64,000 nt of DNA from Dehalococcoidia bacterium (lineage in GTDB: Bacteria > Chloroflexota > Dehalococcoidia > Lucifugimonadales > UBA3495): contig CBDANN010000005.1 of the NCBI GenBank assembly GCA_965197635.1, forward strand, positions 50,219 to 114,218, written 5' to 3'. The notes beneath the pieces were generated by a model. The model saw only the letters and a list, made by a program, of their open reading frames with translations. It was not told the origin of the DNA and did not search any database. Below are positions 2,375 to 52,196 of the stretch, piece by piece; the stretch's first letter is position 1, and every line of letters starts with the position of its first letter. The position numbers and the translations under genes are program-made.

Positions 2375-3655
2375 GTGCACAGGGGCGGTCCAATCGGGTC
2401 ACAGGTGCCCACCTTGCTGGGGTACCCTTTCAAGCTGGTTCGGGACCGGTTCTGGCGGGTCAGTTGGGCGGGGCTCCACGAGGTACGCTACATCGCCGAG
2501 GTCGCGGTCTGGCTGCGCTGGTTCGTGGCCGCGTTGTGCGTGTACGTCATAATCCAGCGTCCCTTCCCCTTTCCGGTCTTCCAGTACGCGTCCTACGGCG
2601 TGGCCATTGGCTCGCTGATTGTTCTCAACGGGTTCGTCCACTACCAGTTGTGGTCCGGTCGTCTTTTGAGCTGGCGGTGGGTGCTGGCGCTGCATGTCAT
2701 GGACATAGCGTTGGTGACGGCGGCGGTGTGGATTTCGGGAGGGCACTCCGCTCGGTTTTCCCACTTGTTGTACTACCCGACGCTGGCGGTTTTCGCCACG
2801 CTGTTCTCGTCGCTGAAGCTCAACCTGGCGTGGGTCACGTTGGTCGCCCTGACGTACGCTGTGGTGTCTCTTACGGTGGGAGAGGGAATTGATTGGGCTG
2901 CCCGAGAGGACATCACACTGGTCGCAAGGGTGGTGGTGATGTACATATTGGTGCTGGGGGTCAATCTGGTGGCCAGGTTCGAGCGAGCCGGCCGCTTGAG
3001 TGCGACCGAGCGGGAGCGCGCCTTGCAACAGGAGCGCATTGACCTCTCCCAATCGATCCACGACACGGCGGCCCAGTCGGTTTACATGATTGGCCTGGGA
3101 GTTGACAGCGCCCGGTCGCTGGCGGGGGACTACAACGCGCAACTGTCCGAGACGCTGGCATCCACGTCCCAGTTGTCCAGGTCGGTGATGTGGGAACTGA
3201 GACGCTCAATCGACATGGGTGGCATCTTCGAGGGCAGGGATTTGGGCTCCGTCCTGCGGGCGCACGCGGAGACGTTCCAGAGGATCACGATGGTTCCCAC
3301 CGCAATGTCGCAGTCTGGCGTGGAGCCGGCGCTGGGTTTGGACATCCGATCTCGGCTCTTTTCCGTCGCGCACAACGCTCTGACCAACGCCTTCCGGCAT
3401 GCCGATGCGCGGCGGGTGGACGTGGCGCTGGATTTCAGCGAAGACTGCATCCGCCTGAGGGTGGCGGACGACGGGGTGGGGCTTCCCGATGACTACGCCG
3501 AGCGCGGCCGGGGTTTTGTGGGCATGCGGGCGGAAGCGGAGCGGATGGGCGGTTGGTTGACGGTGACTTCGGGCGGACCCGGTAAGGGAACTTCGGTGAG
3601 TTGCGTGGTTCCCATTGATGCGACCAGAGGGCTGGGCCCAACGGGCCCGAACTGA
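2375..3655 (+). CDS. sensor histidine kinase (membrane N-terminus, HisKA_3 + HATPase_c)
   Basis: Several N-terminal TM helices. H-box LSQSIHDTAAQSVY, N-box AHNALTNAFRHA and G-boxes DDGVGLP / GFVGMRAEAERMGG. It lies directly upstream of a NarL-type regulator. The start codon is uncertain. Confidence 0.85.
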   Translation: MHRGGPIGSQVPTLLGYPFKLVRDRFWRVSWAGLHEVRYIAEVAVWLRWFVAALCVYVIIQRPFPFPVFQYASYGVAIGSLIVLNGFVHYQLWSGRLLSWRWVLALHVMDIALVTAAVWISGGHSARFSHLLYYPTLAVFATLFSSLKLNLAWVTLVALTYAVVSLTVGEGIDWAAREDITLVARVVVMYILVLGVNLVARFERAGRLSATERERALQQERIDLSQSIHDTAAQSVYMIGLGVDSARSLAGDYNAQLSETLASTSQLSRSVMWELRRSIDMGGIFEGRDLGSVLRAHAETFQRITMVPTAMSQSGVEPALGLDIRSRLFSVAHNALTNAFRHADARRVDVALDFSEDCIRLRVADDGVGLPDDYAERGRGFVGMRAEAERMGGWLTVTSGGPGKGTSVSCVVPIDATRGLGPTGPN

Positions 3656-3667
3656 CCGGAGGGTGAC

Positions 3668-4330
3668 ATGTCTGAAGACGGGCGATTCCAGGTCATGGTG
3701 GTGGACGACCATCCCCTGTTGAGAGACGGTCTGCGGCGGGTGCTGGAGAACACCGGCGAGTTTGAGGTGGTGGGGCAGGCTGCCGACGGTGAGGAGGCGG
3801 TGACACTGGCCCGGGACCTCCGCCCGGATGTCGTCATAATGGACCTGATCATGCCGGGAAAGGACGGGGTAGCAGCTTGCCGTGAGATCGTGGAGTTGCT
3901 GCCTGACGCCCGGGTGCTGATGCTGACGGCATCCACGGATGACGATGCGGTCATCTCGTCGGTGGCCGCCGGGGCGACGGGGTACGTCGTCAAGGACGCC
4001 AGTCTGCTGGAACTCCTGGAAGCGGTAAGGGACGTGGCGCAGGGCCGGGTCCGGATACCGCTTTCTGTTCTGAGACGGGCCTGCGCCGTAGCGGATGTCC
4101 AGTCCGAGCCCGGTCGCGAGCGGAACTCCCGAATGCTGACAGAGCGGGAGCGGGATGTGCTGGCGATGTTCGCCAGTGGGAGTACCTACGCGGACATCGC
4201 GGGCGCGCAGAACGTCAGCTCCTCCACCGCCCGTAACATCATCTACCGCATTCAGGATAAAGTGGGGACGGGCTCCCGGCGTGGCCTGGTGGCTTGGGCG
4301 GTGCGCAACGGACTGCTGGATGACGACTAA
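3668..4330 (+). CDS. response regulator, NarL/LuxR family
   Basis: Receiver motifs VMVVDDHPL and PDVVIMDLIMPGKDG. C-terminal LuxR HTH LTERERDVLAMFASGSTYADIAGAQNVSSSTARNIIYRI. Confidence 0.9.
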   Translation: MSEDGRFQVMVVDDHPLLRDGLRRVLENTGEFEVVGQAADGEEAVTLARDLRPDVVIMDLIMPGKDGVAACREIVELLPDARVLMLTASTDDDAVISSVAAGATGYVVKDASLLELLEAVRDVAQGRVRIPLSVLRRACAVADVQSEPGRERNSRMLTERERDVLAMFASGSTYADIAGAQNVSSSTARNIIYRIQDKVGTGSRRGLVAWAVRNGLLDDD

Positions 4331-5702: not shown

Positions 5703-5836
5703 TGTAAAACGCCAAGAACTATATACCGGTAATCTGCGAAATCGCCACGAACTATAGACCAGTTCGCCAAGGTCTATGACCACCGGTGGGCGCCAACGAG
5801 GCGACCATGGCCGCACTTCGATTTTGAGGTGCAGCG

Positions 5837-7411
5837 ATGGCGTACAAGGAGGTGCTCAGAGTGGAAATACAGGAAGTGATCCGCCGCTGGCAGGCGGGAA
5901 ACAGCCAACGGCAAATAGCGGATGGGACGGCCTGTCGCGGGCGACGGTGCGCAAGTATCTGTCGGCGGCGACAGAGGAGGGGATTGCCCAGGAGGGACCG
6001 GCTCCCAGCGAAGCGCAGTTGAGCCGTTTGGTTGGGATCAGCCGGGCTGGGCCGCGGCAAGTGGAGACGCCGGTTGAAGACAGCCTGGCTCCCTGGGGTG
6101 ACCAGATCTACCAGTGGCTCACCGGCGACCGGTTGCAGGTTACGCGCGTCCAGGAGTTGCTGGCGGCGCGGGGCTGTACGGTGTCGTACACGTCGTTACG
6201 TCGGTTCATCAGGAAGCGCAACTGGGGACGGCGGAGCGTCCGCACGGTGCGGATGGCCGATACCGAACCGGGAGAGGTGGCGGAGGCGGACTTCGGCCGG
6301 CTGGGGATGATCACCGATCCGGCCACGGGCAAGCGCAAGGTGGTGTGGGCGCTGATCATCGTGCTGTCGTACTCGCGGCACTGCTTGGTCTGGCCGACGC
6401 ACCGCCAGAAGCTGGAAGACGTTATCGCCGGTCTGGAAGCGGCGTGGGCGTTTTTCGGCGGCGTGCCCCGCTACCTGGTCATCGACAATTTCCCCGCCGC
6501 TGTAGCAGGACCGGACCCACTGCATCCGCGATTGACCCGGGGCTTTCTGGAATACTCCCAGCACCGGGGTTTCGTCGCCGATCCGGCCCGAGCCCGTCAT
6601 CCCAAGGACAAGCCCAAGGTCGAGCGGAGCGTTTCCTACGTGAGGGAGCGCCTCTTCAAGGGCGGCGATTTCAACGGGCTGGCCCACCTGCGCACTGAAG
6701 CCCAGCGCTGGTGCCTGGAGGTGGCTGGCCAACGGGTCCATGGCACCACGCGCAAGAAGCCGCCGGTGGTATTCCAGGATGCAGAGCGTCACGCCCTGTT
6801 GTCTTGGGACGGCGATCCCTACGAGATCACCCACTGGCGCACCGCCAAGGTGCATCCCGACCATCACGTGGCCTGCCAGTACGCGCTGTACTCAGTGCCA
6901 TCGTCGGTCTGCCCACCGGGTCAGAAGGTGGAGATCAGGCTGGACAGCAAGCTAGTGCGCATCTACCACCGGGGCAAACTGGTCAAGATCCACCAGCGTC
7001 AGGCCAAAGGCGGCCGCGCCACCGACCCTGACGATTATCCCGCCGAGCTCACCGCCTACACCATGAAGGCTCCGGACCGGGTCAAGCGCAGCGCGGTGCT
7101 GCAGGGACCGGCGGTAGCCCAATTCGCCGAACGGCTCTTCGACGACCAGCATCCCTGGTCCCAGATCAGGCAGGGCCACCAGGCAGGGCCACAAGCTCAT
7201 CCGTCTGGGCGAGCGCTACACACCCCAGCGTCTCGATGCCGCCCGTCAGCGTGCCCTGGACGTGGACCTCATCGACGTGCGTCGCGTGGAACGCATCCTG
7301 GTGCAGGCTCTGGAAGAGGAGGCCACTCCACAACTGCCATTGCCAATACCAGCCGGTCGTTTCGCCAGACCCGGCTCAGTCTTCGCCCATGCCACCGGAA
7401 GTCGATCATGA
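5837..7411 (+). pseudogene. istA: IS21 transposase IstA, two frameshifts
   Basis: MAYKEVLRVEIQEVIRRWQAGNSQRQIA, then a frame change near 5920, then ...VWALIIVLSYSRH...VIDNFPAAV...KDKPKVERSV. A 13-bp tandem duplication GGCAGGGCCAC(C/A)A at 7169-7194 shifts the frame before the C-terminal GHKLIRLGERYTPQRLDAA. Confidence 0.85.
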
Positions 7412-8173
7412 CCCGAGTACCCGAACTCACGCCTCTGCTCAAGCGTCTACAACTGGGACCCATGGCCGCCACCCTGCCCGAACGCATCGCCCTGGCCCGC
7501 CGTGAACAGCTGGACTACGCATCATTTCTGGAGATCATCCTCAGCGATGAGGTCAACCGCCGCGCCCACCGCCGCACCGAACTGCGATTGAACAACGCCG
7601 GTTTCGAGGAAACCTGCCGGCTGGAGGACTTCGACTGGTCGGCGTCGATTACCCTGGACCGTCGGCTCCTGGATGCCGTTTTCTCCCTGGAGTTTCTCGA
7701 CAAGCACGAGCACGTCCTCCTGGTGGGACCGGCCGGTGTTGGCAAGAGCTTTCTCGCGCAGGCCCTGGGCTATTCCGCCATCCGTGCCGGACACACCGTG
7801 CGCTTCGTCCACGCCGACGACTTCTTCAAGGCCATGGCCCAGGCTCGGGTCGACAACTCGCTGGACCGTACCTTACTCCTTCCTCGCGCCCGATCTCCTC
7901 ATCATCGACGACCTCGGTCTGCACCGGCTCACCCCACAGCAGTCCGCTGATCTCTACGAGCTCATCCTCAATCGCCACCGGTCGTCCAGCTTCATCATCA
8001 CCAGCAACCGGGCCGTGGACGAATGGCTCAGCCTCTTCAACGATCCTATCCTCGGCAACAGCGCTCTCGACCGCCTGGCCAACGCCAGCTACCAGATCGT
8101 CATCGAGGGCGCCAGCTACCGGGAACGGCTGTCGCCACACCGCGCCTTGCTGGGCACGCAAGGAGGTGATTGA
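7408..8173 (+). pseudogene. istB: IS21 helper ATPase IstB, one frameshift
   Basis: ATGA overlap with the istA stop. Walker A LLVGPAGVGKSF; Walker B LLIIDDLG appears only after a frame change near 7870. Confidence 0.85.
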
Positions 8174-38040: not shown

Positions 38041-39471
38041 GGTGAATTGGCCGAATTGGGTTAGGAGATGGCTGGCGTTGGGGGTGGTGGTTATGTCATA
38101 TAGCTGGGATGGACGGTGCAATTGATCTCCGGACTGCCGACCGGGATGTGCTCATCGGCATCATCATCATCATCCGACAGCAGGCCATCATTGAACGCCT
38201 GGAGAAGCGGGTCGCCCAGTCGGAAGGCAAGGGCAAATCCGGCGGTTCGGGACGGATGCCCGGCCTGAAGCCCAAAGGCGACGGGAAGACGGATCAACCC
38301 AAGAAGCCGCGCCAGCCCCGTCGCTCGGGCTTTGCCCGAACCAGAATGACGCCCGACCAGCGGATGGAGCACGCGCTGGAGCGGTGTCCCGATTGTGGGA
38401 TCCAGTTGTCCGGGGGCTGGACCCAGCGCACTCGGGAGGTCATCGAGTTGCCCCAGGTTCCGGTGCAGGTAACCGAGCACGCCTATATCGCCCGCGCCTG
38501 CCCCCAGTGCCAACGGCGGTGGGTTCCCTCGGCGGAGTTGGACGAGGTAGTGATGGGCCAGCAGCGCCTGGGGATCAACCTGGTCAGCCTGATTGCCGCG
38601 CTGCGGGAAGAGGCCCGGCTGCCCTTCCGTACCATCCAGTGGTACCTGGCCGCGGTGCATGGTCTGCGTCTCAGCGTGGGCGCCATCGTGGCCGCCACAC
38701 CAAGGGTGGCCGACCGAGCCCAGGGGATGATGACCGACATCGTGGAACGGATCCGAGGCAGTCCGGTGGTCCACGCCGACGAGACCGGCTGGCGGGAGGA
38801 CGGACACAACGGTTACGTGTGGACCTTCAGCACCCCCACCCTTACGCTACTTCCTGCACGCTACTCCTGCGGAGGGGACGCGGCAAAACCGTGGTGGATG
38901 AGGTCCTGGGCGATGAGTTTGCCGGGGTGCTGGTCAGCGACTTCTATGCCGCCTACCACCACTATGACGGCCCCAAGCAGCGCTGCTGGGCACATCTGTT
39001 GCGGGACATCCACGACCGGCGCGTCCTCTACCCCGACGATCTCCCCTTGGTCCAGTGGGCGGACGCCGTCCACCAACTCTACCAACAGGCCAAAGCCTTC
39101 ACCCATCCGGCAGAGCAGCAGCGACGCGCTGCCCAACTGGCCCTGGAACGACGGCTGCTGGCGCTGTGCCGTCCCTACCGGGATGACCCGGCGTCGGCGC
39201 AGGCCAGACTGTGCCGACGCATCAGTAACCACATCAAGGAACTCTTCGTCTTCGTGGCTCATCCGGAGGTGCCGCCGGACAACAACGCCGCCGAGCGCAG
39301 CCTGCGACCAGTGGTGATCAGCCGCAAGATCAGCGGCGGCACCCGCTCGGAGCGAGGCACCGAGACCAAGATGGCGCTGGCCTCAATCTTCGGCACCTGG
39401 CGCACACAAGACCTCAACCCACTCGCCGCCTGCCAGCAACTCCTCGCTTCCCCTCAACTCTGAACAGTTAC
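38030..39471 (+). mobile_element. IS66-family IS (single-ORF type)
   Basis: TIRs GTAACTGTTCAGACTTGGTGAGG (38030-) and the reverse complement of CCCCTCAACTCTGAACAGTTAC (-39471). No matching TSD. Confidence 0.85.
38109..39463 (+). pseudogene. IS66-family transposase, two frameshifts near 38830-38880
   Basis: Zinc ribbon CPDCGIQL...CPQCQRRW, VVHADETGWREDG...WTFSTPT, then a frame change, then VLVSDFYAAYHHY...QRCWAHLLRD...NNAAERSLRPVVISRKISGGTRSERG. Confidence 0.85.
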
Positions 39472-39586
39472 CAGTATCTTTCCTGCGCCATGGCTGCTGC
39501 ACCTCCCGGCAACCGGATTTCGCAGCCATCGTAGGGATTGCCACCACCGAACCCAAAGTACTTCCAATGCTAATTTGATCCAATAC
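39472..39586 (-). repeat. 115-bp relic of an IS630 copy-A-type end
   Basis: Near-identical to 663-776. It starts exactly at the IS66 right end and ends ...CAATAC followed by TA. Confidence 0.85.
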
Positions 39587-40445
39587 TAAATTAAAGCCAA
39601 GGTGGGATGTGCATTTGCCGGAAGGCTGGAATTGGGCTGGGAATCTTGTAGGAGCGCCTCGGCCCTCGATTGCAGCACTGTTCGGCAACGCCGTCTCACC
39701 TCGTCCTTCCGGCTGGCCAGACCAGCCAGGAAGTTCCCGACGCGTTCCTGCACCGCCGCCCTGGTCCCCAGGCACAAATTGCCGGTGGCCTCTTCTCTCG
39801 CCCAACCCCAGATGGCCTCATCGGCGTTGAAGTCCGGGCTGTAGCCCGCAGGTTCACCAGCCTCAGGTTCAGGTCAGGCGTCTGCAGGTATTCCCGCAAC
39901 GCCTCCCCACGATGGGCCGGGGCATTGTCCCAGATCACGTTCAGACGCCCGCCGTGCCTCCCCCGCAACCGTTCCAGGAAGGCAACCGAGGTCCCGGCGT
40001 TGCTGTTGCCCTCCACTTCCATCCACTCCACCTCTCCGGTCTCCAAGCACACCGCCGAGTAGTAGCTGGCCTTCTCCCCGTATTTCGGACTGCTGGAGTC
40101 CACCAATGCCGGCTCTCCTCTCAGCACCCACTCGCCCCGCAACTTGGCGTCGGCCCGGAAGTGGGCCTCGTCAACAAAGAATACCTTTCCGCCAGTGCGT
40201 CCCGACTGGTCCCAAAAGGCGGCATACTCCGCCACGAAGGCCTCACGCTTCGCCTCATTCGCTTGGACCAACCGCTTCTTGGGCCGCTTGAAGGCGAACC
40301 CCAAGCGGCGCAGGTAATTCAAGCAGCTGCTGCGGCACAGGCTGACACCGAACCGTTCCGAAACCAACTGCCGCACCACCTTCCAATACCAGTTGGCCAT
40401 TTCCATGCCTGACCATGACGGCGGCAGTTGCACCGCCGCTTTCAA
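39586..40445 (-). pseudogene. IS630-family transposase DDE part, frameshift near 39840
   Basis: VFFVDEAHF...YYSAVCLETGEV...LNVIWDNAPAHRG, then after a frame change GYSPDFNADEAIWGWAREE. Confidence 0.8.
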
Positions 40446-40815
40446 CTCCTCTTGCTGCGCTTGGTCAAGGGCGGGGGGAACCGCCGGTCGGCTCGAATAG
40501 CAGGGCCGCAGGCCCTCCCTCGCTGAAGGCCGAGGCCCAGCGCCCGATGGTGTGGGGGTCGCGCTCCAGTGCCTCCGCCGTGGCCGCCGCCGTCCAGCCT
40601 TGGGCCAGGAGCAGCATAGCGTACCAACGCTCCCGCTCCCGGGGCGTGGGCGCCAGGATCATCCGCCGCCTGAGGTCCTTCTCCCTCAGCTGCCATCGTT
40701 CCAGCGACCGCCCTATCTCTCTCACCCCCATCAGCAACGCCTCCCAACTTCCGAGGTCAGCTAACCAGTTACGGCCTCAATTTACCCCACTCCTCTGCGC
40801 ATTTCACCCTGGCTT
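39594..40815 (-). mobile_element. IS630-family IS, copy B (different subgroup from copy A)
   Basis: TIRs AAGCCAAGGTGGGATGTGCA (39594-) and the reverse complement of GCGCATTTCACCCTGGCTT (-40815), with TA at 39592-39593. About 1.22 kb. Confidence 0.85.
40465..40737 (-). CDS. IS630-family transposase orfA (HTH)
   Basis: RERERWYAMLLLAQGWTAAATAEALERDPHTIGRWASAFSEGGPAAL. Confidence 0.8.
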   Translation of the reverse strand: MLMGVREIGRSLERWQLREKDLRRRMILAPTPRERERWYAMLLLAQGWTAAATAEALERDPHTIGRWASAFSEGGPAALLFEPTGGSPRP

Positions 40816-41019: not shown

Positions 41020-42749
41020 CTACTGTAAGCAGAACAGGCTGACCGGCTTCGTCCATGCGCCCCATCCGTGGCTTGAGTACCTGCCCCGTACCTGGATGGA
41101 AAGGGCGGACCCGCCGCGCACGCTTAGCTTGCCGTACATGGCGTAGTATTGCTCGTCTCCGTACTCGTAGTCGAACTTGCGGGTCACGTTGCCGGCGCCA
41201 CCCTGGGTCGTTATGTGGGCTTCGTACTCGTCTGCGATGCTGTTTGGTGCGACGTTGGGGTGTTCCTGGGGGCCGGCCCAGAAGATCTTGAAACTCAGGG
41301 TGCCGTCGCAGACGTCGTTGAGCAAGTTCCGCAGGCCGTTGGGCTGTGGATCGTCGGACCCGTAGGCGTCCGTCCAGAATGCCGTCAGGGGGCCCAGGTT
41401 GAGGGCTGGAACCTCGTCCGTTCCGTCCGGCGGAGGCGGCGGCGGTTCCGGCGTCGGCTGTGGGGTGCCGGTCGCTGATGTGAAGGGGCTGGACCCCAGT
41501 CGGTTGACTGCCGCGACCTGCAGCGAGTAGTGGGTGTTGTTGGTCAGCCCGGTGATCTCGACGTTCTGCCCGCGTGCGCCCGGGGGTTTGTTCTGGATCG
41601 TGGTCGTGGTCCATGAGCCTGACGATTCCCGCCGGTGTCGGACTTGGTAGGACGTGATGGGTGCCCTTTCGTCCTCGGTGGGCGGCGTCGTCCAGCTGAA
41701 GTGGAGACCGCCGTCCAGGGGCACGACGGTGATGCTCACGGGCGGATCTGGCGCGCTGGGCGGCCCCTCGGGCTCCGCAGTCGTATCCCCTGTGGGGCCG
41801 TTCTCGTCCGATCTGAGGGCGCGGACCTCGAAGGTGTACGTCACGCGGTTGGTGAGGCCGGTGACCGTGTAGGAATTTGTCGTCCAGCCGCTGCCCGGCA
41901 TCTTGGTCCAGTCGGGCGTCCAGGTGGTTCCGCCGTCCGGGCTCGCCCGGTACTGGTAGCCGGTGATGGAGTCGTCCGGGGATGCGTCCCAGCTGAGGAT
42001 GGACCTCCTGTCCTCTCCTGCCGAGGCGCTGAGGTTCGCCGGGGCAGTCATGGGTCCGCGGGGCGTGAACGACATGCTGCTGGCCGTGCTGAAGCTGGTT
42101 TCCTCGCGCACCGTTCTTATTTCGAACGTGTAGAGGATGTAGTTGGTGAGCCCTGACAGGGTGACGGATGTCGTGGTGTGGTCGCTGTCGGCGGCGCCGG
42201 TCCAGTCCGGGTTCCAACCGGTGTCGTTCGCGTTCATGTGGCGGTACTGGTAGCCGCTGATCGAGGCGTCGGAGGGGTTGGTCCAGGAGAGCGTGACGGC
42301 TCCGTCGCCGGCGAGGGAGGAGCTCAGGTTCTGGGGCGCAGTCAGCGGCGCTCTTGGTATGGCGCGGACCTCGGCATGGTTGCCGGTCACTTCCTCGCCG
42401 TCTCGGGAGTATACGGCACGCAGCTGGAAGGCGTACTCGGCGCCGTTGGTGAGATCGCCGCTGAACATGGTGAGCGTGGTTGTCGTCGGGCCGCTGTCGG
42501 GAACGTCGAACCAATCCGGGGCCATTGACGGTTCGGCGGTGGGGATGATGTTGAGTTGGTATTTGGCGATGGTGGCGTTTGAAGGGTCGTCCCACGTGAG
42601 TTTCACCAAGCGGTTGCCGGGTTGTGCTGCAAGGTTGTTGGGGGCTGGCCGGTCCATGTTGTACGAGTAGAGTTTGCCATTGACCGAATCAACCACCCAC
42701 ATGACGGCGTGGTTTGACCAGATGCCCCAAGATGCGGTGAGGCCCGATC
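41020..42749 (-). pseudogene. repeat protein fragment F (last repeat, 4 x FN3, P-rich linker, C-terminal domain)
   Basis: GSGLTASWGIWSNHAVMWVVDSVNGKLYSYN, four FN3 domains (LTWDDPS, LSWTNPS, LSWDASP, FSWTTPP), PEPPPPPPDG, and a ~140-aa tail ending WGAWTKPVSLFCLQ. Confidence 0.85.
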
Positions 42750-42893
42750 CTAGTATTACAACGACGGTTGACGAGTACGGACCTTGACTTTGGCCTATGC
42801 TAAACAGGAACGGTACTCAAATGAGGGTGTCTTTGCGACCCGCTGATACGAAGCTTCAAGCGTGGTTCGCCAAATCCGTCGTTGTAATACTAG
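42750..42893. mobile_element. MITE with perfect 18-bp TIRs, inserted at CTAG
   Basis: CTAGTATTACAACGACGG (42750-42767) and CCGTCGTTGTAATACTAG (42876-42893). Removing 140 bp (the element plus one CTAG) restores the reading frame of the repeat-protein gene. Confidence 0.9.
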
Positions 42894-44150
42894 TAGCGTG
42901 TTGAAGTTCTTGTCCGGGTCCGGCGCCTTGGTCTCCATGTCGTAGGCGTATATTTTGTTCTCGCTCCAGTCGGACACCCACATGGTGACCCCGTCTGACC
43001 AGAGACCCCGGGGAAACTGGTTTACTGAATCGAAGTCCCTGTCCGAGTCTGGGTCCTTGGTCTCCATGGAATAGGCGTAGAGCTTGTTGTCGAAGGTGTC
43101 GGCTACCCACATGGTGACCTCGTCCGACCACAGGGCGTAGGGGGTTTGGTTGCCGGCGGTGTACAGGGTGTCGAAGTCCTTGTCGGAGTCTCGGTCCTTG
43201 GTCTCCATGGAATAGGCGTAGATCTTGGAGTCGGTGGCGTCCGAGACCCACATGGTGGCGCCGTCGGACCAGATGCCCCAGGGGGCGGTGTTGCCGGCGT
43301 CCTGCAGCCCGGTGAAATCCTTGCCGGGGTCGCGGGTCTTCGATTCCCGGTCGTAGGCGTACAGGCGGGCCGTTGAGCTGTCGCCTACCCAGAAGGTGGT
43401 CCTGTTTCCCCACAGAGCGGTGGGCCGGCTGTTACCGGCCACGGTCATGACGCCGTCCAAGTCGTCGACGGCTCTCCAGCCGAAGTCGGCGCCCACGCCC
43501 CGGTTGATGGAGAGGGTGTGTCCCTCGCCGTCGTCGTTGGGGGCGTTGACGATGATAGCGAGCGTGTTCTCGCCGGCGGCGAGGTTGACCTGAAAGCCGT
43601 CGGTCTCCGCGTCGGCGTCGGTGCCGTCAAACACCAACTCGGCGAACCGGTTGGTGGGCTTGGCCAGTACGGTGGCCTGGGTGACGCTGCTGGCGACGCC
43701 GTGCTGGTGGTCGATCTCGTCAGGGTGGAGCCCGGCGACGTCCTCGCCGTTGACCGTCAGGACACCTATGGACGTGTCGCTGGCGGCTGGCATCCGGTAG
43801 GCGTAGATTTTGTTGTCGTAGCTGTCGGAGGCCCAGATGGTGGATCCGTCTGACCACAATCCTTTAGCCTCTGTGCCACCTGATTCATCGGTTTGGATGA
43901 ACCTGGCGGTCTGCTCGGCTCCGTCGTGGATGGTGTAGGCGACGATGGTGCTATAGTTGACCCCTCTGGCCCACATTGTTGTTCCATCGGTCCAGAGGGC
44001 TTGTATGAAATCGTCAACGTCGACGTCTTTCTGGGGCTGGCGTTCTAGCGTAAACAGGTTGTACGCGGCGGCAATCCTATGGTCCTTGCTGGTTTGTATC
44101 CAAAGCGTCGTTCCGTCGGAGGTGAACACGCTGGAGTTGCTGTCTAGTAC
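42894..44150 (-). pseudogene. repeat protein fragment E (rest of module 4, most of module 5)
   Basis: Resumes VLDSNSSVFTSDGTTLWIQ directly after IS701 and continues to ...PDKNFNTLL at the MITE. Confidence 0.8.
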
Positions 44151-45808
44151 TACAGTCGCGCTTGTGATGAAGGTGTCTGAAGGCGTCTCCGGTAGTGACA
44201 TTGCATGGCCCGGGCCTGGTGCCGCCGTCTCCATCCCGACCAGTGGATGGTCAGGGCAGGACTGCCCCGTGGCAGCCACAGCAGCCGGCACAGCAACCGT
44301 CTGACCTCGGGCACGGTCAGTGGGATGAGTTCTCCCACGAACCTATCCCCCTTTTACCGTCGCCACCGGCGGCATAGTATTACAGTCGCGCTTGAGGAAC
44401 AGGTGTCTGAAGGTGTCTCCGGTAGTGACATTGCATGGCCCGGGCCTGGTGCCGCCGTCTCCAGCCTGACCAATGGATGGTCAATCTGGGACTGCCCCGT
44501 GGCAGCCACAGCAGCCGGCACAGCAACCGTCTGACCTCGGGCACGGTCAGCGGGATGAGTTCTCCCGGGAACCTATCCCCCTTTTACCGTCGCCACCGGC
44601 GGCATAGGACCGGATTACCGCCAGAAAGGCATGGGCCAGCATGGCCAGGGTGATGTGCCGGTGCCAGCCGACCCACAGGCGTACCTCATACTCATCCAGC
44701 CCCACCTCCTGTTTGGCCTCCTTGAAGGCGTCTTCGATGATCCACCGGGTGCCAGCCACGCGCACCAGTTCCGCCAGCGATACCTCTCCGTACCAAAACA
44801 GGCGTAGTAGGCCAGCTCCTCAGGATCGGCGATGCCCGAACCCTTGACCAAGCACGCACCAGCAGCCAATGCCCCTGATCCAGTGCTGACCAGGGTCGTA
44901 TCGGCAACCAACCCCAATCGTAGAGGCGCGGCCCTTTGCTGCCCTCCCCAGCGCTCAGACGTTGCCACCGGTCATCAGGTATCTGCTGGGCCAGTTCACG
45001 GGCTGCCACCTGTGCTGAGCCATCCTCCGTATCCGCCCACAGCGGCTCGTTGTTCTTCACCGCCAGCACGTAGGGCAGGGCCTGCTCCTCCAGCCACCGC
45101 CGTAGTTTCCGGTCATTGCCGTACACCGTATCCCCAGTTACCCAGGCAAAGGGCACCCCAGCCACCACCGCGCGGGCGATCATCTCCTGAGCCAGTTGTG
45201 CCTTGGTGCGAAAGACCACCCCTTCCGGGACACCCGCTTTCCGCCGTCGCTCCACATCCTCCGCCCACTCCTGGGGCAGATACAGCTCCCGATCCAGAAA
45301 GGCCGCGCCCCGTCGGCTGCCATAGGCCAGGAACACTCCGATCTGACAGTTCTCCACCTGCCCCGCCGTGCCGCTGTACTGACGCTTCACCCCCACCGAC
45401 TTCTGGCCTTGCTTCAGAAACCCCGTCTCATCCACCACCAGCACCCCGCCGGGGTCGCCCAGATGCTCCACCACGTACCCTTGCAGGTCGTCCCGCACCT
45501 GGTCCGCGTCCCAGTGGTACACCGCCAGCAACCGCTGCACCCCGTCGGGGATGGCGTCGCCAGCATATTCGGCCAACTGCCACCCGTTCTTGCGCTCCAC
45601 CGACCCCAGCAATCCTTGCAGGTACGCCAGCGCCCGCTGCCGAGACTCACTGCGGCTGAAACGCGACGCGATACGCCCGTGCAGCGCCTGGAGCCCAACC
45701 TCCCACTCCAGCGCTTCCTCTCGCTCCAGTAATGTCTGACCCATTTCCAACTCCTCCGCTCTCAACAGTAATCATGGGCCTATCCTACCAAAAGTAAGCG
45801 CGACTGTA
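44151..45808 (-). mobile_element. IS701-family IS with a duplicated 230-bp terminal segment
   Basis: Ends TACAGTCGCGCTT (44151-, again at 44381-) and AAGCGCGACTGTA (-45808). 4-bp TSD GTAC at 44147-44150 and 45809-45812. The 1662-bp insertion excises in frame. Confidence 0.9.
44383..45765 (-). pseudogene. IS701-family transposase, frameshifted in the C-terminal third
   Basis: LVVDETGFLKQG...VGVKRQYSGTAGQVENCQIGVFLAY...WVTGDTVYG (frame 1). [42 protein letters not shown] and [18 protein letters not shown] lie in other frames. Confidence 0.85.
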
Positions 45809-45812
45809 GTAC

Positions 45813-46830
45813 TAGGCCGGGTATGTCGATGTCCCTGTTGCTGTCCCTAGCTTTTGACACGAGGTCGTATGCGTAGAGAGGCTTGGTGTCGACGTTACTG
45901 ACCCACATGGTGGCGCCATCCGACCAGATGTGATGGGGGTCTTGGTCACCTGCGCCGAACATATCGAAGTTTTGGGTCGGCAGATACTCTCCGCTATCCA
46001 TGTCGTAGGCTTTCACTATTCTGTCGTTGGCGTCCACAACCCACATGGTGGTTCCATCCGACCAGATACTGAACGGGAAATAATTCTTGGACAGCGGCAG
46101 GGAGTTGTCGAAGTCCTGCTCGGGCTGCCAGGCGAAGTCGGCGTCCGTTCCACGGTTGACGGAGATGGTGTAGTCCTGGGTGTCCGTCCCGTTCTGGGCG
46201 GTGACGGTGATGGTGAGCGCGTTTCGGCCCTCGGACAGCTCCATCTGATGGCCGTCCTCGGTGTCGTCGGCGTCGGCGACGCTGTAGGAGACGGTGGCGA
46301 AGTTGTTTATGGGTTCCGGCTCGATGGTCACCTGCTCGGTGTCGTGGACGATGCCGTGCTGGTAGTCGTAGTAGTCTTTCCGGAAGGCCGTTACGCCCCT
46401 GCCGCCGATGCTCAGGTTGCGCAGCTCGTCGTTTTCGCTCTGGGGCATGTTGTAGGAGTAGACCTTGCTGTGGGTCTCGTCTATGACCCACATGGTCTCT
46501 CCGTCGGACCAGATGCCTGACTGTCCGGTGTTGCCGGCGGCCCTCGGCGTCTTGAAGTCCTTGCTCGGGTCCCGCTGCCGCGTGTCGATGTTGTAGGCTT
46601 GGATGTACTGGTTTGTCCCGACGTTCGACATCCACATGGTCTCGCCGTCGGACCAGATCCCCGAGGTGGAGCCGGTGATACCGGGTTCTATGTCCCGGCT
46701 CGGCAGGTGGGTGCCGTCCGACAGGTTGAAGGCGCTTATCTTTTGTGGAGTGCTCACTCCCGCGATCCACATGATGGCGCCGTCGGACCAGATTGTTCTG
46801 GTCAGGGTGTTTATGGGTGTTCCTGGTCCT
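45813..46830 (-). pseudogene. repeat protein fragment D (rest of module 3, start of module 4)
   Basis: TIWSDGAIMWIAG..., GIWSDGETMWMSN..., a beta-sandwich, and two repeats. Ends at the IS701 insertion. Confidence 0.8.
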
Positions 46831-47900
46831 CGTATTCCAGTGTGATGTCCTTGTCGGAGTCGCGGGCCTTGGTGGACAGGTTATAGGCGAGGAGGCTCTG
46901 GCCGCCCAACTGCATTACCCACATGGTGGCGCCGTCGGACGAGATGCCGCTCGGATTATCGTTGTCGGCGTCCAGGGTTTCGAAATCCTCGGTGGGCTTC
47001 CTGGTCTTGTCCGCCATGTCGAATGCGTAGATCTTGGCATCGTCTTTGTCCACCACCCACAGGGTGTCGCCGTAGGCCCACAGGTCGGACATACTGTTGA
47101 AGCCGGTGGTGCCGGCGGTTCGGATGTTGTCGAAGTCGTCGGCCGCTTTCCAGCCGTAGTCGGCGTCGGTGCCGCGGTTGATGAAGAGCGTGTAGGCCTC
47201 GGTGGACAGGTCCTCGGCCACACCGGAGACCAATATCTCGTTTGAGCCCACGGTGAGGTTGATCTGCAGGCCGTCGAGTTCCGGGTCGGCGTCGGTGAGG
47301 CTTCCCAATCTGGTCTGTGCCGCCCAGGTCGCCAGCACGTCGGTTGTGGTGGCGTCCAGGGTGATCTGGTTGGCGGAGTGGTCCACGCCGTGGTGGTAGA
47401 TTCTCCCGTTGGGGTCGAACCGGGCGACGGCGACACCGTCCACGGTTATGGAGGTGAGGGTGCTGTCGGTCCGGGCTGCCGCTGCGGTGGATGCGGTGAG
47501 CACGGCGGCGGCTCCGCCGCCCCTGGGGCTGACGGCCCGCAGTTGGAATGTGTACTCGGTGTCGCCGGTCAGGGAAGCGACCCGGTATTCAGTCGTGTCC
47601 GAGTCGCTGTCCCGGATGTCCTTCCAGTCGGGGTCCCATGTGCCGCCGCCGTCGGCGCTCACCCGGTGCTGGTATTTCGTGATCGTGGGCGAGCCCGCAT
47701 CCCACTCCAGAGTGATGGAATCGTAGCCCAGGAGAGTGGCGGTCAGGTTCTGCGGGGCTGCTGGCGACGGCATGTTGAAGGACAGAATCCGGTTGTTCTC
47801 ATGGTCCAGCGTCCACATCGTGGCCCCGTCGGAGGTGATTCCCGATATTACTCGCGGATGAGTCCAGCGGGTCGACCGTCCGGAAAGTAACTTCCGGTTA
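46811..47900 (-). pseudogene. repeat protein fragment C (last repeat of module 2, FN3, start of module 3)
   Basis: GITSDGATMWTLDHENNRILSFN, FN3 (PQNLTATLLGYDSITLEWD...YTFQLRAV), a beta-sandwich, and two repeats. Confidence 0.8.
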
Positions 47901-47918
47901 CGCCGGAGCCGTCGCTCA

Positions 47919-49820
47919 TCAAGTAGGCGAACAGCTTGCTGCTCTGTGCGTCGGAGACCCACATGGTCTCGCCGTTGGACCAGATGGCATAGGGGTGGTG
48001 TTGTCGCTTGCCAGCGAGAATATCTCCTTGCTGGCGTCACGGGTTCTGGTCTCCATGCTGTAGGCGTATATCTCGGCGTCAGCCAGGTCTGCCACCCACA
48101 TGGTCTCGCCGTCCGACCAGATGCCTGTCGGGCCGGTGTTGGATGCGGCCGCCAGCGTGTCCGACGTGAAGTCCTTGGTGGAGTCCCGGGCCCCGGTGTC
48201 CAGGTCGTAGGCGTGTATGGAATCATCGGTATTGTCGGACAGCCACAGTGTCGTGTCGTCCGACCACATACCCCAAGGGCTGGTGGTTTCGTCCTGTTGG
48301 CGGTCACCGAGGGTGAAGTCATGTTCGGGAGTGCGTTCTTTGGTGCTGACGCTGTAGGCGTAGAGCGTCGCGTCGGCTGAATTAACCGTCCACAGGGTCG
48401 TTCCGTCGGTCCAGATGCCGTAGGAATGCGGTGTGTCGTCGCGGATGCTCGTGCCTTGGTCGGCGATGCTGTAGATGTCGTCAACCGCCTTCCAGGCGTA
48501 GTCGGCGTTCGATCCCCTGTTCAGCGTCAGGGTGTAGGTTTCGGTGCTGTCGTCTGCGGCGGTGACCGTGATGGTCACGTCGTTGGTCCCCGTGTCGAGG
48601 TCGACTTGGAAACCGTCAGCGGCGTCGTCCGCGTCGGCGCCGCTGATGGAGACGCTGGCGAAATTGTTCCTGGGTACTGCCTCGATGGTGACCTGGCTGG
48701 TGGTGTGCGGGAGCGCCTGCATGTAGGAGGCGCTGTCGGAGGGCAGGCTTCGGATGGCCTCCCCGTCCATGGTCAGGCGGCGCAGTGAGGTGTCGTCGGA
48801 TTCCGGCAGGTTGTAGGAGAACAGTTTTGGGCCTTGAAGGTCCGATGTCCAGATGATGGTTCCGTCGCCTAAGATGGCGAGTTCGTTATCGTCTAGGTCA
48901 TCTATGTCCTTGTCGGCATCATGTTCTCTGGTCACCATGTCGTAGGCGTATATTTTGGTATCCGCGCTGTCCATAATCCACATGGTCGTGCCGTCGGACC
49001 ATAGGTCAAATGGGCTGGTGTTGGCGGCGTCTCTGTCGTTGAACTCCTGGTCGGTATCAGGCCTGCCGGTAGCCAGGTTGTATGCGTACACTTTGTTGTT
49101 ACGCGCGCTGGCGACCCACATGGTCGTGCCGTCGGACCAGATGGCCGAGATGTGATTGTGGCCGTGTGAGTAGCTTAAGATGTCCCTGCTGGGTGTGCGC
49201 TGCTTGGTTTCCATGTTGAAGGCGTATAACGCATTGTTGATGAAGTGCGCTATCCAGATTGTCTCGCCGTCGGACCAGAAGTCGGTGAAAAGGTAGCTAT
49301 TACTCACGGTGATCTCGGATCTGCTCCATTCCTTGTCCCGGTCGCGCGCCATTGTGATCGCGTCATAGGCATAAATCTTCCAATCGGTTGCATCGCCAAC
49401 CCACATGGTGGTTCCGTTGGACCAGATGCCGGCCGGAGAATCGTTACCAGCCGCATCCAGGGTGTTGAAGTCGGCGGCGGCGTTCCATTCGTAGTCGGCG
49501 GTGGAACCCCGGTCGATGTGGACGGTGTAGGTCTTGTCGGTGCTGCCGTCCTCCGCGGTTACGGTGATCTCGACCTCGTTATCATCGCCGGCATCAAGGT
49601 CCACCTGGTGACCGGCGGTGTTGGTATCGGCGTCGGTGCTGGGGTCCGTGACCGCCCATGAGGCCGCGCTGTGTTCTGCGGTTGCGGCCACCGTCACTTG
49701 GGCGTCGGTCACTCCGAACCGGTAGGTGGTTCGTCTGGCGCTGAAATCGGGGATGGCGGTGCCGTCGATGGTTATGGACGTCAGGTTGGCGTTGGTGGAG
49801 GCGTCCTGCCGGGTCTCCTC
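47919..49820 (-). pseudogene. repeat protein fragment B (modules 1 and 2)
   Basis: In frame with fragment A across the TAG. Two beta-sandwich domains and nine repeats. Confidence 0.85.
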
Positions 49821-50332
49821 CTAGCCGGTTGGCGCTGGCTGCTCGTCCTCTTTTGGCGCGGTCTCCTCTTTTTCTTCCGGGGTTGGTTCCGGGGTTGGGG
49901 TCGGCGTCGGCGTTGGGGTCGGCGTTGGCTCCGGGTCTGCCGCCAGGGTCGTGACGTTCACGAAGTTGGAACGCGCTGATTGCCCGTCCTTCGAGGCGCG
50001 GATGCGGAACGCGTACCTGGTGCTCTTCTTCAGGTCTACGACCGTGTGGGAGCTGGCTCCGCGTCGATGCTCACCCAGGTGAATTGGCCCGGCGCCTGCT
50101 CGACTATGTCGCGGATGCCGACGTGTTGCTCCGCGCCCGATGTGCCGGGAGGCGTCCAGCTGAGTGAGACGGTGGTGCTCGTCCGGCCGGTGGACGTGAG
50201 GTTTGACGGGGCCTCCAGCGTCGACTGGGCCAGGGCCGTTCCGTCGGATGGCGCCGGCAGGGCAATGGCGATGATGGTGACGAGCACCGGCAGAACGGCC
50301 GCCAGACCGCATATCTTCCAGATGTTTATCAA
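49821..50332 (-). pseudogene. repeat protein fragment A (signal peptide, FN3, TP-rich linker)
   Basis: MINIWKICGLAAVLPVLVTIIAIALPAP, then SNLTSTGRTSTTVSLSWTPP...YAFRIRA with a 1-nt deletion near 50050. Ends TPTPTPTPTPTPEPTPEE...APTG-TAG. Confidence 0.8.
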
Positions 50333-50426: not shown

Positions 50427-50554
50427 CCTGGCGAGTTCGGAGCGAGCCCCTCAAGCCGTGGGAGAAGAAGCCGTGGTGCAGGTGTATCTCCGCGTGGGCG
50501 GTCCGACGGACTCGGTGGTATATGGACCGCTGCGAGTTACCCGGCCGAGGAATC

Positions 50555-52136
50555 TCATTGTGGAGGCGAGTGAGGTGGGAGCCAGACATTGTAGTGGTGG
50601 TGGGCGTTGCGACCCGCCTGTTGGCGTTTCCACTCTGGATGTAAAACGATCCGGATGTCGGTTCGTATATCCGGAACCCGTGTGGACGCCGTGTTGGCAA
50701 TTTCGTTCAGTTTGGGTTCCAGACTGGTCCTGTGGTGAGAGTCTATCACCACCATGATGACAATGGGGTCTCCGAGGACGAACCCGGCGGCCCTGCCTCC
50801 AGACATGGCTACTCGTAACGGGAGCCGCCCTTTCGCGCCTCCAACGCCTCCCGGTGGGCTGCGACATGGCTACTCGTAACGGGAGCCGCCGCTCGAGGGT
50901 GTTCAGTGCCCGAACGTAATGCGTTAACCACGCGAGCTCTGATTCGCGCAACACTGGTGCAGGGCGGCGCACACCATCGTCAGGGATTACCACGAGATGT
51001 CCCGCGGCCGGGTTGTGGTCCTGCGGGATAGGGTTGGCCGCCACTCTACGCTCGTCGAGTTTCAGGAACCGGTTGGCAGGGTCGTGGTTCACGGCATCCT
51101 GGATAGTTCTTCGTTTGGCGTTGGTCGTCCGCTGTACTTGCGCGATTATGTCCTGCATGTCGGCCGGCCCGTGCTGCATCAGAAAAGCGTATATGAGGTC
51201 TCCGGTCCTGCCGCGCCGGCCAAGCATGTCCTGGGGCTCCAGCGACGTGTCCCATAGCTTCAGCCCGAAGGTTGAAAGTCCCTGCCAGGAGATTTCATCG
51301 GATTAGTACGCTGCTGCGCGGACGGCCTCGCTAATGTTGTAGTGAGGAGGCAGGAAGCGCCCTACCAGGCGTCGTATCTCCTCAGCGAGGTACGCCGTTG
51401 TATGTGGCCGATGGTCCCGGTTCAATATGCGCAGCATCGTGTTGGCGACGAGTTTTCTGACGCTGATGTGCTTACCCCAGGGTTGGTCCGGGTGGTAGAA
51501 CCCGTGCTCGCTTGGGAGAATATCCGCCACGCGATAGATGAAGAGAGGGAGGTCCAGTTGCGGCCAGTTGTTCAGGAGGTCTCTCCGGTGGCCAATGGAC
51601 TGAATGATACGCGCTGCACTTTGCGGTTCGTGTGATCGTGCCATATGGGCGGCGACGTCGGCGATCATAGAGTCAATCCCATGGCTCCGGGGGACCACGG
51701 GAGGCGAAGAGACGTAACCGGCCGCGCGGATAACCGGCAATGATCGCTGTGTCGCCGCACCCAACCTGATAAAGGCTCCCAGCGTGGCCTCCGAGTAGAG
51801 TGTTGGTCGGCGATGATGAAGATTGACGATGGCGGCGCGACCCATGATGCTGTTGGCACGCTGCACAGTCTCGGCCAGGGGGTTCCCGTATTGTTGGTCT
51901 GTTTGCGAGAGGGCGTCGATGATGCGGGCCAAGCGAGTTCGTACGGCGTTCGACGGTATGGTATGAACCGCGGCAATCGATCTGTCAGACATGGGCTTGT
52001 TGTCCTGGTCGCCTAGCTTGGCGTCGAGTAGGTCCGCCCACTGGACGTTGGTCCGCACCTGAGCGATGACGTTCCGGGCGTCTGTGAATAGCCTGGGGGC
52101 AACGATGGTATCGGATGTCCCCGATGTGTTTTGCAT
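50555..52136 (-). pseudogene. multi-wHTH (HARE-HTH-like) protein with possible C-terminal nuclease-like domain; in-frame TAA and 61-bp insertion
   Basis: ORFs 51303-52172 and 50451-51227 are in the same frame, separated by TAA at 51303-51305, which falls inside a wHTH unit (SEAVRAAAY*SDEISWQGLSTFGLKLW). A second unit reads LIYAFLMQHGPADMQDIIAQV...ANRFLKL. The frame is then broken by the 28/33/28 insertion. SD GGGAGA lies before the ATG at 52136. Confidence 0.6.
50802..50890. repeat. 28-bp perfect direct repeat separated by 33 bp
   Basis: GACATGGCTACTCGTAACGGGAGCCGCC at 50802-50829 and 50863-50890. The 61-bp period shifts the frame of the surrounding ORF. Confidence 0.85.
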
Positions 52137-52170
52137 GGTGATCTCCCATATGTAAGCCGTGGTAACTGCC

Positions 52171-52196
52171 AAAAAAGCCGTCCATGCGGACGGCCT
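52171..52196 (-). terminator. rho-independent terminator (minus strand)
   Basis: Minus-strand GCCGTCC-GCAT-GGACGGC followed by TTTTTT, just upstream of the 52136 start. Confidence 0.6.

Follow-up and report, generated by a model that had tools for sequence, protein, structure and literature searches.

Which protein was encoded by the broken minus-strand gene at 41020-50332 of the DNA analysed here, and does the gene still function? The stretch, hereafter called the window, comprises 64,000 nucleotides (nt) of contig CBDANN010000005.1 from a Dehalococcoidia bacterium, and positions are counted within it unless another contig is named. The best explanation for the locus, to which we give a probability of about 0.7, is that it is the decayed gene of a secreted, cell-surface, modular adhesin-like protein of about 2,500 amino acids (aa) in a sponge-dwelling member of the Dehalococcoidia. 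The interest lies in the cross-phylum domain family to which its repeats belong, as the window locus is only a decayed copy.

Three-frame translation of 50400-40800 and stitching of the fragments gave a minus-strand coding remnant that runs from a TTG start at 50332 to a stop codon at 41020-41022 and amounts to approximately 2,500 aa. The reconstructed product begins with a hydrophobic N-terminus (ALA|QS), followed by a fibronectin type III (FN3) domain, a linker rich in threonine, proline and glutamate, two modules, a second FN3 domain, three further modules, four FN3 domains, the linker PQPTPEPPPPPP and a 135-aa terminal domain. The original prediction had joined the fragments by removing an insertion sequence (IS) of the IS701 family and a 140-bp miniature inverted-repeat transposable element (MITE). 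Both elements do excise in frame and the product has the anticipated length, but the gene is also broken by five frameshifts and a TAG codon.

A hidden Markov model (HMM) derived from the window's repeats detected exactly 25 copies of the 45-50-aa repeat, all of them within the gene and in its minus-strand orientation, in five runs of five and with E-values between 7e-12 and 1e-23; in the remainder of the window it detected none. Each run follows a Cadherin-like beta-sandwich (PF12733), of which the gene holds five copies (E 9e-26 to 3.5e-6) that all pass the gathering score of 24.2 bits, with 90.6 bits for the first fragment, which carries two stretches, and 27.8, 52.9 and 30.9 bits for the others. 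Hence, Pfam and the repeat HMM agree on the plan that had been proposed, five times a cadherin-like sandwich plus five repeats. Module 1 consists of a sandwich at 49506-49787 and repeats 1-5 at 48801-49505, the latter in a single intact frame that was used for structure prediction. In module 2 the sandwich (48513-48788) gives the best PF12733 stretch, with E 9.2e-26 for the fragment, and repeats 6-10 (47768-48512) contain three of the frameshifts. Module 3 comprises a sandwich at 47171-47461 (E 3.5e-6) and repeats 11-15 at 46443-47170, again recognised by the repeat HMM and broken by one frameshift. Repeats 16-20 of module 4 (43788-46148, behind a sandwich at 46149-46427 with E 5.1e-14) are split by the IS between repeats 17 and 18, and in module 5 (sandwich at 43497-43772, E 3.9e-7; repeats 21-25 at 42652-43496) the MITE interrupts the run ahead of repeat 25.

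The flanking parts of the protein also agreed with what had been proposed. FN3 (PF00041) matches were obtained at all six expected places, and all passed the gathering score of 25 bits: the first domain (49947-50212) reached 41.5 bits (E 1.5e-10, profile positions 2-82 of 84) after repair of its frameshift, the one between modules 2 and 3 (47486-47767) 38.3 bits (E 1.5e-9), and the four tandem domains at 41464-42651 together 121.2 bits (E 2.1e-35, four stretches). The threonine/proline- and glutamate-rich linker at 49788-49946, the hexaproline-type linker at 41428-41463 and the C-terminal domain were likewise present, the last being 135 aa long rather than about 140. The N-terminus at 50228-50332, MINIWKICGLAAVLPVLVTIIAIALPAPSDGTALA|QS, has a hydrophobic core and then an A-x-A site at which the signal peptide would be cleaved; an equivalent N-terminus, SHA|QS, precedes the first FN3 domain of the intact homologue P0243 described below. 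A scan for promoters and terminators 5' of the pseudogene start found nothing.

The C-terminal domain (41023-41427) carries two conserved cysteines and a GWGAWTKP motif, is without a Pfam model, and gave no match in a Pfam scan or in a word-indexed search. It is a second unannotated domain shared by the giant homologues: the copy in L061, an orthologous contig with 92% nucleotide identity over 3.8 kb, is 54% identical, and a local phmmer search of the fetched proteins placed it at the C-terminus of P0243, P0242, P0244, P0318, P0273, P0278 and P0306. The WSxWS-like 'GWG.W..P' ending, together with a weak resemblance to EPO-receptor D2 (E 0.17), suggests that it may be a divergent FN3-like sandwich, and it possibly serves in surface retention.

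Since the repeats occur strictly in fives, we modelled the five repeats of module 1 with AlphaFold2 from an alignment of 30 sequences. The model has a mean predicted local distance difference test (pLDDT) of 92.2 and a predicted template modelling score (pTM) of 0.90, and its DSSP assignment contains five triplets of six-residue strands, with strand A formed by 'P.GIWS', B by 'TMWV.D' and C by 'KIYAY.'. A short 'E-HHH-E' element from the 'RD..KDF' linker precedes each of the five A-B-C triplets, and the first of these elements is the N-terminal 'DYEWNAAADF', which holds a tryptophan and an aspartate that are invariant in the family. With five linkers and five triplets, and with the first linker ahead of the first triplet, the N-terminal element must complete the last blade, and we infer that it supplies the missing strand of blade 5 in a velcro closure. 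In the proposed fold, one 45-50-aa repeat would thus make one blade, with strands A, B and C drawn from 'P.GIWSDG.TMWV.D....KIYAY' and a short outer strand D from 'RD..KDF', while an N-terminal 'GW.A..D' segment would mimic the linker and close the ring at blade 5.

A Foldseek search against the PDB returned only beta-propellers. The best whole-domain fit was to the five-bladed papaya glutaminyl cyclase (TMq 0.69, root-mean-square deviation 3.7 Å over 237 columns); the six-bladed Ca2+-binding CJ1041C and six-bladed structures of NHL or Pizza type were also among the best, and WD40 proteins gave only generic propeller matches (TMq 0.50-0.56). The repeat count points the same way, as internal runs in 120 homologues contained exactly five repeats in 120 of 151 cases, ten in four and fifteen in one, and the runs of giant homologues were 6x5, 7x5, 10x5 and one uninterrupted 25. 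Model confidence, the five triplets with their D-strand motifs, the Foldseek matches and the runs of fives all argue that the earlier proposal of separate five-bladed propellers was essentially right, the predicted unit being compact and closed. Modelled together, sandwich and propeller reached a pLDDT of 89.6 and a pTM of 0.86, and the lack of any linker between them ('...NRG....YGWKA') makes a single rigid unit probable. The blades are near-equivalent: identity between blades was 33.2% at the same index and 32.0% at different indices, and the family consensus 'N..P.GIWSDG.TMWV.D..D.K.YAY' occurs in every blade, with no blade-specific conserved residues.

Does the repeat then belong to a named family? 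The window's own repeats reached no Pfam or NCBIfam cut-off, and the best matches of its modules below the cut-offs were to the NUP159 propeller (0.0035-0.013), SGL (0.036) and 6-phosphogluconolactonase (2.7e-4). For SGL (PF08450), module 1 scored 14.1 bits against a cut-off of 26.3. In contrast, 30 modules from the family gave SGL matches in 15 cases (best 4.4e-9, 36.7 bits, with less than one third of the profile covered), Arylesterase matches in eight (best 0.00032), Lactonase matches in seven (best 0.0005), an NHL match in one (0.018) and PQQ_2 matches in two. The best SGL-scoring relative spans only positions 141-212 of the 246 in the profile, which is a sign of remote kinship rather than membership, and the relative P0248 accumulates an Arylesterase match at 2.2e-18. 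Sequence searches of the PDB yielded only marginal matches, whether one module or the family profile served as the query; the profile found SMP-30 (0.0023), YbhE (0.0078) and virginiamycin B lyase (0.095). From the matches of relatives to SGL, Arylesterase and Lactonase, and those to SMP-30 and YbhE in the PDB, we read the repeat as a diverged five-blade offshoot of a lactonase/SGL/NHL-like blade type. Hence, the original prediction that the repeat cannot be placed is only partly right, as the window's own copies pass no cut-off and their relatives reveal a remote kinship, whereas its exclusion of NHL, WD40, Kelch, PQQ and YVTN stood.

It could still be argued that the repeat merely belongs to one of the families already named, such as NHL, YWTD, SGL or WD40, and is in no way new. 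Its blade pattern, 'P.G[hydrophobic]..D..G.[hydrophobic][aromatic]V.D....[KR]I..[FY]', follows the blade logic of NHL, SGL and YWTD repeats, and half of the tested relatives have SGL matches from below the threshold up to it. We consider this unlikely, given the low SGL score of the window modules, the absence of any NHL (PF01436) match at E <= 1 for the window fragments and of any listed WD40, Kelch, PQQ or YVTN match for the window modules in Pfam, the solitary NHL match among the family modules, and the six to eight blades of the named families compared with strictly five here. Moreover, NCBI names the family proteins only 'cadherin-like beta sandwich domain-containing protein', after their other domain. 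Two further candidates were rejected. One is NCH3 of Pfam (PF22729, 'NACHT C-terminal helical domain 3'), which matches 22 of the 30 modules of alignment A1 with E-values down to 7e-10, but these are matches of about 20 residues between a model of a helical domain and a beta-strand motif, five times over; they are probably spurious and could lead to mis-annotation of the propeller family. An Asp-box (S-x-D-x-G-x-T-W) reading of 'SDG.T.W' was ruled out by the different spacing.

Neither Pfam nor NCBIfam holds a dedicated model for the five-bladed propeller family, large as it is. Among 1.84 billion cluster representatives (50%-identity clusters), a profile search returned 10,734 clusters at E <= 0.001, 5,284 at <= 1e-10 and 2,387 at <= 1e-30, including giants that reach 6,437 aa. 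When one genome per GTDB species was scanned with one canonical module as the query, 60 loci came to light in metagenome-assembled genomes (MAGs) of seven bacterial phyla and of Nitrosopumilaceae archaea. The hosts were Verrucomicrobiota (Limisphaerales, Pedosphaera), Latescibacterota, Gemmatimonadota, Acidobacteriota, Chloroflexota (Dehalococcoidia, SAR202, Tepidiformaceae), Actinomycetota (Poriferisodalis, Poriferisocius, Aldehydirespiratoraceae), Spirochaetota (Salinispira) and the archaeal Nitrosopumilaceae/Nitrosopumilus, lineages that make up the typical consortium of high-microbial-abundance sponges. On the archaeal locus L032 (2842-4458; Nitrosopumilaceae MAG OZ220738.1), a 538-aa protein carries a single five-blade propeller along with a signal peptide, a PPAEQ-repeat linker and another domain, and its gene adjoins a 365-aa transposase-like open reading frame (ORF) that is IS630-like by eye only; the copy and its neighbour are consistent with transfer between domains of life.

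A search for intact orthologues had been suggested as a check, and intact homologues that share the architecture do exist. P0243, a protein of 2,905 aa encoded on a 435-kb contig, is colinear with the reconstructed sequence (39% identity over 2,326 aa). Besides a signal peptide it has six sandwich-plus-propeller units and five FN3 domains, and it shares the PPPPPP linker and the Cys-containing C-terminal domain; in P0242 (4,675 aa) the units number ten and the FN3 domains nine. Directly upstream of the P0243 gene lies a gene for 1,849 aa with no Pfam match on record (L062, 1972-7521), and a serpin, a trypsin-like protease and an FN3-polysaccharide deacetylase are encoded nearby.

With regard to the state of the gene, the five frameshifts are located near 50060, at 47996 (-1), 47881 (+1), 47850 (+1) and 46826 (+2), the last four having been placed by alignment to L061, and the nonsense codon, an in-frame TAG, stands at 49821-49823 within the threonine/proline- and glutamate-rich linker. 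The 48000-47850 stretch is open in one frame in P0001, a more distant relative with 76% identity. L061 has two frameshifts of its own, none in common with the window, a sign of independent decay. Because the frameshifts and the TAG come in addition to the IS and the MITE, the gene has no single uninterrupted reading frame and is a dead, multiply inactivated pseudogene rather than one that is interrupted and otherwise intact.

The IS occupies 44144-45815 on the minus strand. Its transposase belongs to DDE_5 (PF13546, E 4.9e-53), and its 20-nt terminal inverted repeats (CTAGTACTACAGTCGCGCTT) are 100% complementary. L061 continues unbroken across the empty site, which identifies the element as an insertion. 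Together with the in-frame excision, these features bear out its earlier assignment, and the MITE too is as described earlier. The DDE_5 transposase and the 20-nt terminal inverted repeats are what this copy shares with the IS701 family; it differs in a frameshifted transposase, split over two frames into 357-aa and 72-aa ORFs, in one end that is duplicated in tandem over 230 nt (44145-44374 and 44375-44604, copies 92% identical), as a result of which three end sequences are found at 44144, 44374 and 45815, and in its companion, the 140-nt MITE with related ends. The MITE (42750-42893, no strand assigned) consists of 140 nt plus a duplicated CTAG and has inverted ends (CTAGTATTACAACGACGG). The ends of the two elements are identical over the first 11 nt, CTAGTAYTACA, and both elements sit at CTAG, which suggests that the MITE is mobilised by the transposase of this IS701-like element with CTAG as target or duplication. 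The reading frame is restored when each element is excised with one CTAG kept, and the reading of CTAG as a target duplication of the IS is ambiguous owing to its palindromic sequence. Directly downstream of the pseudogene, at 38109-40737, an IS66 transposase in two overlapping frames (ORFs of 402 and 359 aa) and an IS630-type element (HTH_33 plus DDE_3) form an IS cluster.

Could the decay itself be adaptive? A surface protein that is targeted by host phagocytes or by phages might be lost repeatedly, the locus then serving for contingency or antigenic escape. The independent, non-shared frameshifts of two strains at 92% nucleotide identity, the position of the locus amid IS66, IS630 and IS701 elements and a MITE, and the many database relatives that are fragments would all fit such a scenario. 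Yet the locus has no simple-sequence tracts for reversible switching, and a symbiont genome rich in IS elements and in paralogues would be expected to show the same pattern under relaxed selection. We therefore regard adaptive decay as an unlikely account of the locus.

If the gene was once intact, its product would have been exported by a Sec signal peptide. FN3 spacers would then be followed by five rigid units, each a sandwich fused directly to a closed five-bladed propeller, and these by four FN3 domains, a proline linker and the conserved Cys-containing terminal domain. Partner domains in the relatives are exclusively extracellular (fn3, cadherin-like, PPC, CARDB, Calx-beta, DUF11, subtilase, LRR), and together with the signal peptide and the beads-on-a-string layout they suggest a secreted surface fibre. 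Each propeller might present a symmetric surface for binding, in the manner of propeller lectins, with as many as five equivalent sites, or 25 in the whole protein, and would act as a non-catalytic, multivalent binding module for host matrix, glycans or other cells. The identical conserved residues in all blades and the arrays of ten or more propellers on extracellular giants favour such a role, while equivalent blades without blade-specific residues speak against an asymmetric catalytic centre. We therefore lean, by a little better than even odds, towards a role in multivalent adhesion, be it to host matrix, to glycans or to adjacent cells, and infer a lectin or adhesin role for the family. 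In this genome that function would have been lost through the lesions described above.

The competing view of function is that the propellers are Ca2+-dependent surface enzymes of lactonase or arylesterase type, acting for example in quorum quenching or in the degradation of host metabolites. In its favour, the sole detectable sequence kinship of the family is with SGL, Arylesterase, Lactonase, Vgb lyase and SMP-30, and CJ1041C, a six-bladed Ca2+-binding protein that has been proposed to be a lactonase (PMC13578688), is among the best structural matches. Such enzymes, on the other hand, are six- or seven-bladed, and their metal site is asymmetric, with different residues contributed by different blades, whereas all five blades here follow one consensus, blade identity is independent of the index, and the enzyme-profile matches span one or two blades. 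Tandem arrays of five to ten or more per protein are moreover typical of binding modules and not of catalysts, and we consider an enzymatic role improbable. That the gene is functional, its frameshifts and stop being assembly errors or recoded and only the mobile elements recent, is scarcely credible: the -1 shift at 47996 lies in a C-run and close relatives come from contigs with a modest coverage of 8-11x, but the other four of the five indels are outside homopolymers and one of them is a 2-nt insertion, the 1.67-kb IS and the MITE alone disrupt the ORF, the TAG codon and the differing frameshifts of L061 remain to be accounted for, and the window also holds full-length ORFs for argininosuccinate lyase (ArgH), dihydrolipoyl dehydrogenase (Lpd), an MFS transporter and a luciferase-like monooxygenase, which shows that the indels are not general assembly noise.

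The window, which lies in an IS-rich stretch of a 470-kb contig, can be assigned from its own genes to the Chloroflexota and probably to the Dehalococcoidia. Its ArgH is 84% and 78% identical to proteins named as Chloroflexi/Chloroflexota MAG, and DNA of its histidine-kinase region matches the flank of a Dehalococcoidia MAG locus (see below). The only named homologues had suggested an Acidimicrobiia origin, which was rejected on these grounds. The host context of the window bacterium is probably that of a sponge symbiont. Published surveys have reported both enrichment and lateral transfer of genes with cadherin and FN3 domains in such symbionts (PMC8163846, PMC11706023). Entoporibacteria of sponges are among the SB06xx bins (PMC7883664), and a deep-sea sponge yielded the GTDB genus VXOI01 (PMC12795557). 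The propeller family itself may be specific to sponges. A more far-reaching idea is that the 'WSDG.TMWV' propeller represents a new, sponge-holobiont-specific class of multivalent lectins or adhesins that passes horizontally between symbionts, both ammonia-oxidising archaea and bacteria of at least seven phyla, and serves in attachment to the host matrix or in recognition by it, with its repeated independent pseudogenisation reflecting ongoing selection by host or phages; we put this forward as a tentative suggestion that we ourselves doubt.

Some points weigh against the interpretation of the locus as a decayed adhesin gene of a sponge symbiont. The frameshifts were read from the assembled sequence. 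Ring closure and a conserved top face were deduced from the DSSP string, the pTM and Foldseek superpositions. Some relatives exceed the Pfam cut-offs for SGL and Arylesterase, both of which are enzyme families, so that a catalytic role keeps some probability. The sponge origin of most homologous MAGs was taken from lineage names (Poriferisodalis, Poriferisocius), bin names and two reports (PMC7883664, PMC12795557), and ligand binding and surface localisation are predictions for every family member.

Elsewhere in the window, two minus-strand ORFs (258 and 289 aa) without a Pfam match lie directly upstream of the pseudogene at 50451-52172. At 2435-3858, a HisKA_3 histidine-kinase region is 78% identical at the DNA level to positions 20-1446 of L060, where it flanks a propeller-protein gene in a Dehalococcoidia MAG; the window counterpart is 37 kb away from the pseudogene. 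At 5776-7950, a single 724-aa ORF joins an IS21 IstA-like integrase (rve, Mu-transpos_C_2) and an IstB-like ATPase, which are normally encoded by two genes.

A defined propeller family would provide a better marker for symbiont surface proteins, and the sandwich-plus-propeller of about 330 aa is an expressible unit for binding or structural studies of symbiont attachment in the sponge. The family also offers a clean natural case in which a six-bladed blade type has given rise to a five-bladed propeller. Among known systems, the 'eukaryotic-like' adhesion proteins of sponge symbionts share with the propeller proteins their PF12733 and PF00041 content, their host lineages, and their enrichment and lateral transfer in lineages associated with sponges. 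Surveys of these proteins counted Pfam-annotated domains only, and as neither Pfam nor NCBIfam has a dedicated model for the propeller it went uncounted, so that about half of each protein was invisible.

A direct succession of an Ig-like sandwich and an NHL-type propeller in one unit is also known from the filamin-NHL unit of TRIM-NHL proteins (Lin41, 6fq3), but these are eukaryotic, intracellular and RNA-binding and have six blades, and with a TM-score of 0.46 the resemblance is an architectural analogy only. Papaya glutaminyl cyclase (2iwa, 2faw) gives the best whole-domain superposition (TMq 0.69, TMt 0.65); it is an enzyme without internal sequence repeats, and its identity of 10-12% to the window module is no evidence of homology. 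Tachylectin-2 is a five-bladed propeller lectin with five repeats of about 47 aa, and the window propellers resemble it in blade number, in repeat length and in the high regularity of the blades, a pattern expected for one binding site per blade. No sequence similarity between the two was detected: the Pfam Tachylectin model matched neither window fragments nor family modules, and tachylectin-2 was absent from the PDB sequence matches and from the top 50 of Foldseek. Detectable profile similarity to the propeller family is confined to the SGL/SMP-30/gluconolactonase, arylesterase (PON) and lactonase group (PF08450, PF01731, PF10282), which has four-stranded blades with the same hydrophobic/Asp pattern. 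Its members have six or seven blades and asymmetric Ca2+ centres and are usually single domains, whereas the family described here has exactly five near-equivalent blades and occurs in tandem arrays on giant extracellular proteins.

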